A stretch of 64,000 nucleotides of DNA from Octopus vulgaris (Eukaryota). Every line of letters begins with the position of its first letter. Position 1 is the first letter of the stretch. Made by a program: the position numbers and the translations under genes. Of this stretch, positions 51,526-52,453 are shown piece by piece. The notes beneath the pieces were generated by a model, which worked only from the letters and a program-made list of their open reading frames with translations, searched no databases and had not been told where the DNA came from. The stretch covers positions 75,640,001-75,704,000 of the forward strand of contig OX597830.1 of the NCBI GenBank assembly GCA_951406725.2. Direction: 5' to 3'.

Positions 51526-51747
51526 GTGTATATATATCTATATGTATATGTGTGTACATATATATTGCGCCTATATATATATATATATATATATCGTGAC
51601 GCATATTTGCCATTTGAATATGGCTAACCCCTAAGGGTGGATGCTACTGTAGTTTGTAGCCCCAGGAAGATATCTCCTCCAGCTGGCTATAGACACACTT
51701 TCTGTGCCCTATCAGTATTTGTGAAGGGAAGTCATCCTTCCCGTCTT

Positions 51748-51817
51748 CAACTTATGATACACACGGACTCGAGTTTCAAGGTATTTACCTATCATCGGCG
51801 TGTGACAATCATAGTTG
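51748..51817 (-). ncRNA. Type I hammerhead ribozyme, variant core (copy 1)
   Basis: Reverse complement identical to 52037-52106. Confidence 0.75.
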
Positions 51818-52036
51818 TCGACGAGAATTCAGTTTTCCTCACAAATACATATACTTTTTCCAGTGTCGATTGACACTGTTATTGAAAAAGTGAAATCAAA
51901 CAATGATAAATCTCAGAGCGAGTTATAAACAGTAGCGGTAACACATCGTGACGCATATTTGCCATTTTTCAATATCAGTGTCAATCGACACTGGAAAAAG
52001 TATATGTATTTGTGAGGAAAACTGAATTCTCGTCGA

Positions 52037-52106
52037 CAACTATGATTGTCACACGCCGATGATAGGTAAATACCTTGAAACTCGAGTCCGTGTGTATCAT
52101 AAGTTG
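52037..52106 (+). ncRNA. Type I hammerhead ribozyme, variant core (copy 2); predicted cut after 52088
   Basis: CAAC-TATGAT-tgt-CACACG | CCGATGA | t-AGGT-aaat-ACCT-t | GAA | ACTCGAGT | C^ | CGTGTG-t-ATCATA-a-GTTG. Confidence 0.78.
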
Positions 52107-52388
52107 AAGACGGGAAGGATGACTTCCCTTCACAAATACTGATAGGGCACAGAAAGCGTGTCTATAGCCAGCTGAAGGAGGTATCTTCCTGGGGCTACAA
52201 ACTACAGTAGCATCCACCCTTAGGGGTTAGCCATATTCAAATGACAATTATGCGTCACGATGTGTTACCGCTACTGTTTATAACTCGCTCTGAGATTTAT
52301 CATTGTTTGATTTCACTTTTTCAATATCAGTGTCAATCGACACTGGAAAAAGTACATGTATTTGTGAGGGAAACTGAATTCTCGTCGA

Positions 52389-52453
52389 CAACTATGATTG
52401 TCACACGCCGATGATAGGTAAATACCTTGAAACTCGAGTCCATGTGTATCATA
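52389..52453 (+). ncRNA. Type I hammerhead ribozyme, variant core (copy 3); predicted cut after 52440
   Basis: Same motif with one stem I mismatch (CATGTG); the element ends 13 nt after the cut site. Confidence 0.7.

Follow-up and report, generated by a model that had tools for sequence, protein, structure and literature searches.

An abundant 352-nt hammerhead repeat of the octopus genome with Penelope-like insertion marks, probably mobilised in trans by Neptune-type elements

The window analysed here, a stretch of 64,000 nt (64 kb) of Octopus vulgaris DNA, contains at 51593–52453 two inverted arms built from the same 352-nt non-coding unit, in which hammerhead ribozyme motifs recur. The locus raises the question of what class of element this is, how its copies reach new sites, and what part ribozyme cleavage plays in the process. 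The retrozyme class itself is already known; the entry of retrozymes into new sites has long been a hypothesis (PMC7229834), and homology support for a link with Penelope-like elements (PLEs) is recent, coming from a 2026 preprint in which animal retrozymes are described as non-autonomous PLE derivatives (Li, Clavereau and Pollet, bioRxiv 10.64898/2026.07.22.740005). A sequence-only reading of the window had proposed that the unit is a retrozyme, that a transcript of it would excise a 352-nt RNA, and that a Penelope family could mobilise it. Our analysis supports, with good confidence, an abundant 352-nt hammerhead repeat that carries PLE insertion marks and is likely mobilised in trans by Neptune-type elements.

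Anatomy of the element and its hammerheads

The element consists of a minus-strand arm and a plus-strand arm joined head to head; a 3-nt overlap (TTT) links the arms, which are 97–98% identical. Unit numbering starts at the predicted cut, so that window position 52089 is position 1. The features are:

51572..51592, no strand: (TA)n target microsatellite at the left end of the element, as read in the sequence
51593..51967, minus: inverted, 5'-truncated arm of 375 nt, unit positions 151>352>173; on the outside it terminates at the short 3' end of the family
51748..51817, minus: hammerhead 1, type I, with U4C core at 51798-51792 and predicted cut after 51766
51965..51967, no strand: head-to-head junction with 3-nt microhomology
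51965..52453, plus: direct arm of 489 nt, unit positions 229>352>352>13
51976..51993, plus, with a second copy at 52328-52345: hairpin CAGTGTC-N4-GACACTG, present in compensated form in the older subfamily
52037..52106, plus: hammerhead 2, core 52056-52062, C4 at 52057, U·U at 10.1/11.1, predicted cut after 52088
52089..52440, plus: cut-to-cut 352-nt monomer, strongly self-paired by its fold z-scores
52112..52128, plus: hairpin GGGAAG-N5-CTTCCC, with A-U, G·U and G-C forms among subfamilies
52262..52304, plus: 43-nt PLE-type 'tail' between two fixed 3' ends, positions 173 (52261) and 216 (52304)
52389..52453, plus: hammerhead 3, damaged, with G>A at 52442 and truncation 13 nt past the predicted cut at 52440
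30787..31985, plus: broken Penelope/Poseidon-type relic, PLE-like, outside the element and an unlikely partner

The 352-nt period was confirmed in the sequence. As the sequence-only reading had stated, the plus-strand GUC sites end at 52088 and 52440, exactly one monomer apart, and the GUC of the minus-strand hammerhead ends at 51766. The description of the unit as tandem on both arms holds for the right arm only, the left arm containing a single hammerhead in its 1.07 units. Among stop-to-stop frames that overlap 51500–52500 the longest has 82 aa, and hence there is no credible ORF, in agreement with the earlier claim; the cut-to-cut monomer has a GC content of 41.8%. Both the tandem unit (352-nt period, multi-unit arms, within the 150–450 bp range of retrozymes) and the combination of no protein, no LTR structure and GC below 50% are as in retrozymes. 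No tRNA gene was found in 50000–54000, and a scan for sigma-70 promoters and terminators, of a type ill-suited to animal DNA, gave no match. A 155-nt direct repeat (50120–50274 and 50828–50982, 89% identical, 708 nt apart) lies just to the left of the element.

The left end of the window copy fits the pattern of the family described below, and the right end, at position 13, is abnormal; since family arms normally stop at 173 or 214–223, it is likely the result of a later deletion of ~160–200 nt.

The monomer folds strongly both as a linear molecule (z = -5.36, with 0 of 100 shuffles folding equally well) and as a circle (z = -4.7, 0 of 60 shuffles as good), and in the predicted fold its two ends are held together by a long, interrupted stem I. 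Stem I of hammerhead 2 is predicted to extend to ~52027/52116, and the hairpin at 52112–52128 competes with this extension. Both hairpins named in the sequence-only reading (51976–51993 and 52112–52128) exist and show compensatory changes between subfamilies.

A strict hammerhead descriptor has two matches in the 64-kb window, both within the element, against 0 matches in 2000 unit shuffles and 0 in 20 window shuffles. A complete type I hammerhead had been claimed for each copy: two stand, and the third fails the descriptor, its stem I being broken by G>A at 52442 and its arm ending 13 nt past the cut. Moreover, the core of all three is CCGAUGA (U4C; the C at 52057, 52409 and 51797), not CUGAUGA, and all three have U·U at 10.1/11.1, at the base of stem II; stem III has 2 bp and is closed by a palindromic tetraloop. 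The canonical catalytic core expected of a retrozyme is thus missing from every copy in the window, which lowers the retrozyme claim for the window copy, not for the family. An Rfam scan gave no hammerhead at the gathering score or at E<=10, so that the search suggested in the earlier reading came out negative; the matches it did return were rejected as miRNA-like folds produced by the inverted repeat and by (TA)n.

At family level the unit carries a type I hammerhead, structurally conserved as judged by covariation in stem II and outer stem I. After removal of 3 of 68 distinct hammerhead rows for chimeric flanks or an indel, 92.3% of cells were paired in the remaining 65, and 45 cells had changed on both sides of a pair, compared with 23.2 in shuffles, none of 500 shuffles reaching 45. 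Only four pairs contribute these double changes (shuffle mean 4.4), all of them in the outer part of stem I or in stem II; the 65 rows hardly vary in inner stem I and stem III, where no double change occurs. The covariation whose absence among copies the sequence-only reading would have counted against its proposal is therefore present, in these four pairs only. An alifold run contained two badly trimmed rows and was relied on only for the hairpin pairs. Between subfamilies ~20% apart, the rest of the core, a cut triplet of GUC or GUA, and pairing in stem II have been retained, an apparent conservation of the core to be weighed against the near-canonical core that hammerhead extraction required.

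Insertion footprint and mobilising partner

A genome search with the unit gave 2252 candidate places, the 40 scored being 91–100% identical, and an exact 24-mer occurred 1141 times, with no occurrence in the reversed control; the genomic copies of the family number over a thousand, and the unit passes the copy-number check proposed for it. An older subfamily with a 357-nt unit has 4553 candidates, which may overlap the set of 2252. Unit length across the family is 352–357 nt, and the retrozyme subfamilies are young, with a mean pairwise divergence of 2.6–4.7% over the aligned stretch. Pieces of the family also occur in contigs of runs X1, X5, X6 and X10 (organisms A and B; four studies), runs that are only guessed to be RNA and whose contigs cannot show ends, strand, level or circles; they are counted neither for nor against expression.

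The insertion footprint was read from 67 loci, comprising all those behind the first 100 of 1141 matches to a 3' motif, a sample blind to 5' length; overlapping duplicate loci were removed before counting, and L169 and L171, apparent duplicates, were both kept. Arm pieces end at positions 165–177 or 212–222, chiefly 173 and 216, in 98 of 114 cases, and (TA)n adjoins 80 of these 98 arm ends, the older subfamily being less strictly tied to it. The arms are 5'-truncated, and most copies are 3' stubs shorter than one unit. Thirty-five of the 67 loci are head to head, and one short and one long end are combined in 33 of 35 two-arm loci. A flanking direct repeat accompanies the copy at 5 of 10 loci without a microsatellite. 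Only 16 of 114 arms are longer than one unit, and all 16 continue as monomer, not into an ORF.

The copies bear a Penelope-like insertion signature. The published PLE pattern combines partial tandems with an inverted and truncated arm, a tail on one side and a bias for (TA)n (PMC8557442, PMC3846280), and in the purified Poseidon system both target strands are cut and extended, the tail being the stretch between two internal reverse transcription (RT) start sites (PMC11167929). The octopus family has what is expected of a non-autonomous PLE, namely two fixed 3' ends with a one-sided tail; 5' truncation, partial tandems and a head-to-head inverted arm; and a microsatellite target, with target duplication where this is visible. 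Fixed ends, (TA)n targets and head-to-head arms thus back the Penelope-type mobilisation that had been suggested from the window alone, and positions 173 and 216 are the inferred RT start sites. Separately, 5' truncation points are enriched at unit positions 38–62 (window 52126–52150), where 16 of the 63 arms at risk end; a long predicted helix begins here and may make the RT stall.

The longest array (L031:3400–6550; G000:C2:14086399–14089549) has 3151 nt and 8.95 units that differ by 1–6 nt, ends at position 173, and fits either one rolling copy or later unequal crossing-over. It is made up of U4C-type monomers, lies outside any microsatellite and is a candidate source locus. This one array is what might be expected if the unit were a satellite, or had arisen as a chance structure, and had been spread by recombination. 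Against such an origin speak the dispersal of copies on many contigs, their fixed ends and 5' truncation, the target preference, the direct repeats, and the descriptor controls without a match; we give it next to no credence.

Searches with PLE proteins each returned 10,000–19,000 candidates, 150 of which were scored in each. None of 119 coding-PLE loci from four or five families (38 Neptune-A, 21 Neptune-B, 30 found with a Neptune-C query and 30 of the relic family) has DNA in common with the unit, if separate neighbouring copies and one locus, L298, are left aside. Where a PLE ORF does lie near a copy (L041, L109, L140 and L219), it comes with a distinct 3' UTR and hammerhead of its own, and between it and the unit copy lies (TA)n or other DNA. 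In the families checked, then, no coding element has the unit as its pLTR; the sequence-only reading had named the opposite outcome as one that would refute its proposal. The copies could still be truncated pLTR ends of a coding PLE outside this sample, given that most are short 3' stubs, as in any PLE, and that the genome holds many PLE families, of which four or five were sampled. We consider this improbable: none of the 16 arms longer than a unit enters an RT/GIY-YIG ORF, L298 being ambiguous in this respect; the nearby ORFs are set off as described; and the unit's hammerhead, with its long stem I and 4–5 bp stem II, is unlike the minimal hammerheads of the coding families.

The relic at 30787–31985 had been put forward as a possible partner, a suggestion that the data do not support. 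Its family is old (the best 150 relatives are 72–84% identical, many with stops), is without a Cys linker, and has 3' ends that do not lie in (TA)n; its 3' repeat carries, in this order, a tRNA-like segment, (AAT)n and a minimal hammerhead of its own (L272–L301), and is decayed in the window (31990–32180). At one of 30 relic-family loci (L298:2081–2360) a broken ORF is immediately followed by an old unit copy, ~70% identical and oriented the same way, whose end falls at the tail site next to (TA)n; this is either an insertion plus a deletion, or a template switch. Together with the looser (TA)n attachment of the older subfamily, L298 speaks for mobilisation by the relic's Penelope/Poseidon family, or by a LINE. 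The relic family, however, looks dead whereas the retrozyme subfamilies are young, its 3' ends lie outside (TA)n, and two-ended tails with head-to-head arms are PLE features rather than those of a LINE (PMC8557442, PMC11167929), which leaves such a mobiliser quite improbable. The window itself also contains a LINE-type element (18175–21066, minus strand) with a 964-aa stop-to-stop frame bearing AP-endonuclease and RT domains, and three open stretches resembling pieces of another non-LTR element (58248–60978, minus strand).

Two young families remain as candidates, both with a Cys linker and 46.5% identical to each other in protein. Neptune-A (L041:4291–6780 and L042–L079) has copies 95–100% identical in the queried domain and open frames of up to 869 aa. 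Neptune-B (L190–L210; L210 whole, G000:C1:27840500–27850400) has many near-identical copies with a 775-aa RT/GIY-YIG frame, whose start is overlapped by a 454-aa stop-to-stop frame, in 4271-bp tandem units. The 3' ends of both families lie in (TA)n, with two alternative ends each and a tail of ~42–45 nt in Neptune-A and 26–46 nt in Neptune-B (counted by hand, with limits blurred by AT repeats). In several inverted pairs of Neptune-B the hammerhead motifs stand ~92–94 bp apart, a spacing that suggests a recurrent junction just upstream of the ribozyme. An older family, Neptune-C (L242–L256, downstream of the ORF), appears to carry a (TA)n tract within the 3' repeat and, beyond it, a conserved segment that includes a U3-A8 hammerhead.

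Because target and tail pattern match, these being the two features on which the assignment is made, young (TA)n-targeting Neptune-type elements likely mobilise the unit in trans. Against this should be set the report of no cross-mobilisation between two PLE types (PMC3846280). Under the proposed mechanism, a Neptune RT/GIY-YIG protein would nick both strands of a (TA)n tract and cDNA would begin at two internal RNA sites, one per target strand, on a template continuous across the cut site; the two truncated cDNAs would then join head to head through microhomology.

Form of the template and the U4C variant

The ends of the family are the two internal sites ~173 and ~216 nt downstream of the cut, and not ribozyme cuts. 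Among 104 arms with a normal 3' end, 58 stop short of the cut, 7 end within 12 nt of it and 39 run past, giving read-through in 39 of the 46 arms that reach the cut site. A pile-up of 5' ends at the cut would be the sign of a cleaved linear template; in this unbiased sample there is none (7/46), the stop rate at the cut being 0.15 as against 0.00–0.26 in other bins. A pile-up among the top 40 matches of the unit search was discarded as a selection effect of the query boundary. Because arms read through the cut without a pile-up, the cleaved linear monomer is likely not the usual template, which would instead be a circle or an uncut multimer. Two hammerheads are present in only 4 of the 104 arms, and one in 36, so that few loci could release a monomer.

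Exact core motifs in the family number 566 canonical and 323 U4C. None of 31 hammerheads of the older subfamily has U4C, and on a tree of 67 copies, built without the core column, the state changes 5 times, compared with a mean of 20.5 in 200 shuffles; U4C is a derived, inherited trait, which occurs with two types of stem II. Symmetric CpG decay as the origin of the canonical core was rejected on a hand count of the first 100 of 429 matches (53 CCG, 43 CTG, 3 CCA and 1 CTA). The U4C change is also found in Neptune-B's own, unrelated minimal hammerhead (1193 exact copies versus 607 canonical), and the likewise minimal hammerhead of Neptune-A uses a U3-A8 covariant core of a kind already known (PMC4209133).

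In vitro, U4C considerably decreases hammerhead activity, and U·U is the best tolerated mismatch at 10.1/11.1 (PMC3088659). Since U4C has this effect in vitro, the ribozyme of the window copy is predicted to be slow by analogy. The self-excision of a monomer proposed for the window locus is accordingly weakened: the cut sites are correctly spaced, but both flanking ribozymes are U4C and stem I of the downstream one is broken. The window copy, as a member of a U4C lineage whose ribozyme is predicted to be slow, and with its right end lost, is more likely a product than a source.

For the family as a whole we lean towards a self-cleaved, re-ligated 352-nt circle as the template, with a little under even weight left to an uncut multimer. 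The case for a PLE-mobilised family without any circle, in which uncut multimeric transcripts are copied and the hammerhead is slowed or a dispensable passenger, has several points in its favour. The derived U4C state still reached 323 exact copies beside 566 canonical ones and is heritable on the tree; an intact Neptune family shows the same change; PLE insertion in vitro is not impaired by hammerhead mutants (PMC11167929); and Naiads, without canonical hammerheads, also form tandem PLE insertions (PMC8557442). Against the reading that we favour stands the report of no cleavage in 8 of 9 frog retrozyme dimers (bioRxiv 10.64898/2026.07.22.740005). The account without a circle has to contend with the retention of core remainder, cut triplet and stem II across subfamilies ~20% apart (in hammerheads extracted as near-canonical), the excess of U4 over C4 lineages, the constancy of unit length at 352–357 nt, a viroid variant that remains infectious with U4C (PMC3088659), and the abundant circles yielded by mussel retrozymes of 350–390 nt (PMC7229834). 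We rate this no-circle account as plausible, at appreciably less than an even chance.

Returning to the circle, a bolder version of it appears unlikely to us and is offered as speculation: the unit may be a free-standing ribozyme circle without detectable pLTR descent, copied by Neptune from two sites half a turn from the ligation point, and parasite and helper may have been independently selected for a slowing U4C/U·U that keeps the template uncut. If this were true, the fossil copies would record rolling-circle TPRT directly and provide a natural allelic series for the function of PLE hammerheads.

Relation to known retrozymes and Penelope-like elements

Our literature search found no cephalopod retrozyme and no mapping of such ends in a retrozyme, and the main text of an octopus repeat annotation (PMC13282606), in the portions available, contains neither hammerhead nor ribozyme; its library, Repbase or Dfam may hold the family under another label. 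What the octopus copies contribute is a PLE integration footprint on a retrozyme (67 loci sampled), which places the inferred cDNA start sites and shows copying across the ribozyme cut. Because one genome holds intact Neptune copies as well as natural U4/C4 ribozyme variants of both parasite and helper, the identity of the partner, the form of the template and the need for cleavage become testable with natural sequences.

The preprint of Li, Clavereau and Pollet (bioRxiv 10.64898/2026.07.22.740005) reaches the same conclusion, that retrozymes are non-autonomous PLE partners; it relies on pLTR homology and co-occurrence across 35 genomes, mostly of vertebrates and with no mollusc class listed, and favours local tandem amplification from an inserted pLTR. 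In the octopus, by contrast, the families checked show no pLTR homology to the unit, and it is the insertion footprint left by dispersed copies that serves as evidence. The non-autonomous PLEs of Chlamys, such as MRC1 (PMC8557442), are likewise non-coding, PLE-mobilised and inserted head to tail; they usually share 3' ends with an autonomous family and mostly lack canonical hammerheads, whereas the octopus unit has a hammerhead and no common 3' end was found in the families checked.

In their manner of insertion the EN+ PLEs, including the Neptune clade and the Poseidon PAc element studied in vitro (PMC8557442, PMC3846280, PMC11167929), resemble the octopus family, with partial tandems, an inverted 5'-truncated arm, a one-sided tail, AT-rich or (TA)n targets, two internal RT starts and microhomology junctions. 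The unit differs from them in having no ORF, a length of 352 nt, a tail of 43–46 nt instead of 30–40 nt, and a hammerhead of the canonical rather than the minimal type.

In sequence organisation the octopus family resembles the non-LTR retrozymes of metazoans (Cervera and de la Peña 2020, PMC7229834). They are alike in their non-coding unit of ~350 bp (350–390 bp in mussels) with GC below 50%, in a type I hammerhead whose 2-bp stem III carries a tetraloop, in a self-paired monomer, in target duplications of more than 4 bp, and in coexisting with minimal-hammerhead PLEs; the axolotl Rtz353 (HHR_Amex2) even has, like our unit, U·U at the base of stem II. In contrast to those retrozymes, the octopus unit is known from its sequence, from which cleavage and circles are predicted, and most of its copies are head-to-head stubs shorter than a unit, inserted in (TA)n and having two fixed internal ends; a U4C lineage has spread in the family. 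The family may thus be classed provisionally as both a retrozyme, by its sequence features, and a non-autonomous PLE, by the way in which its copies are inserted.
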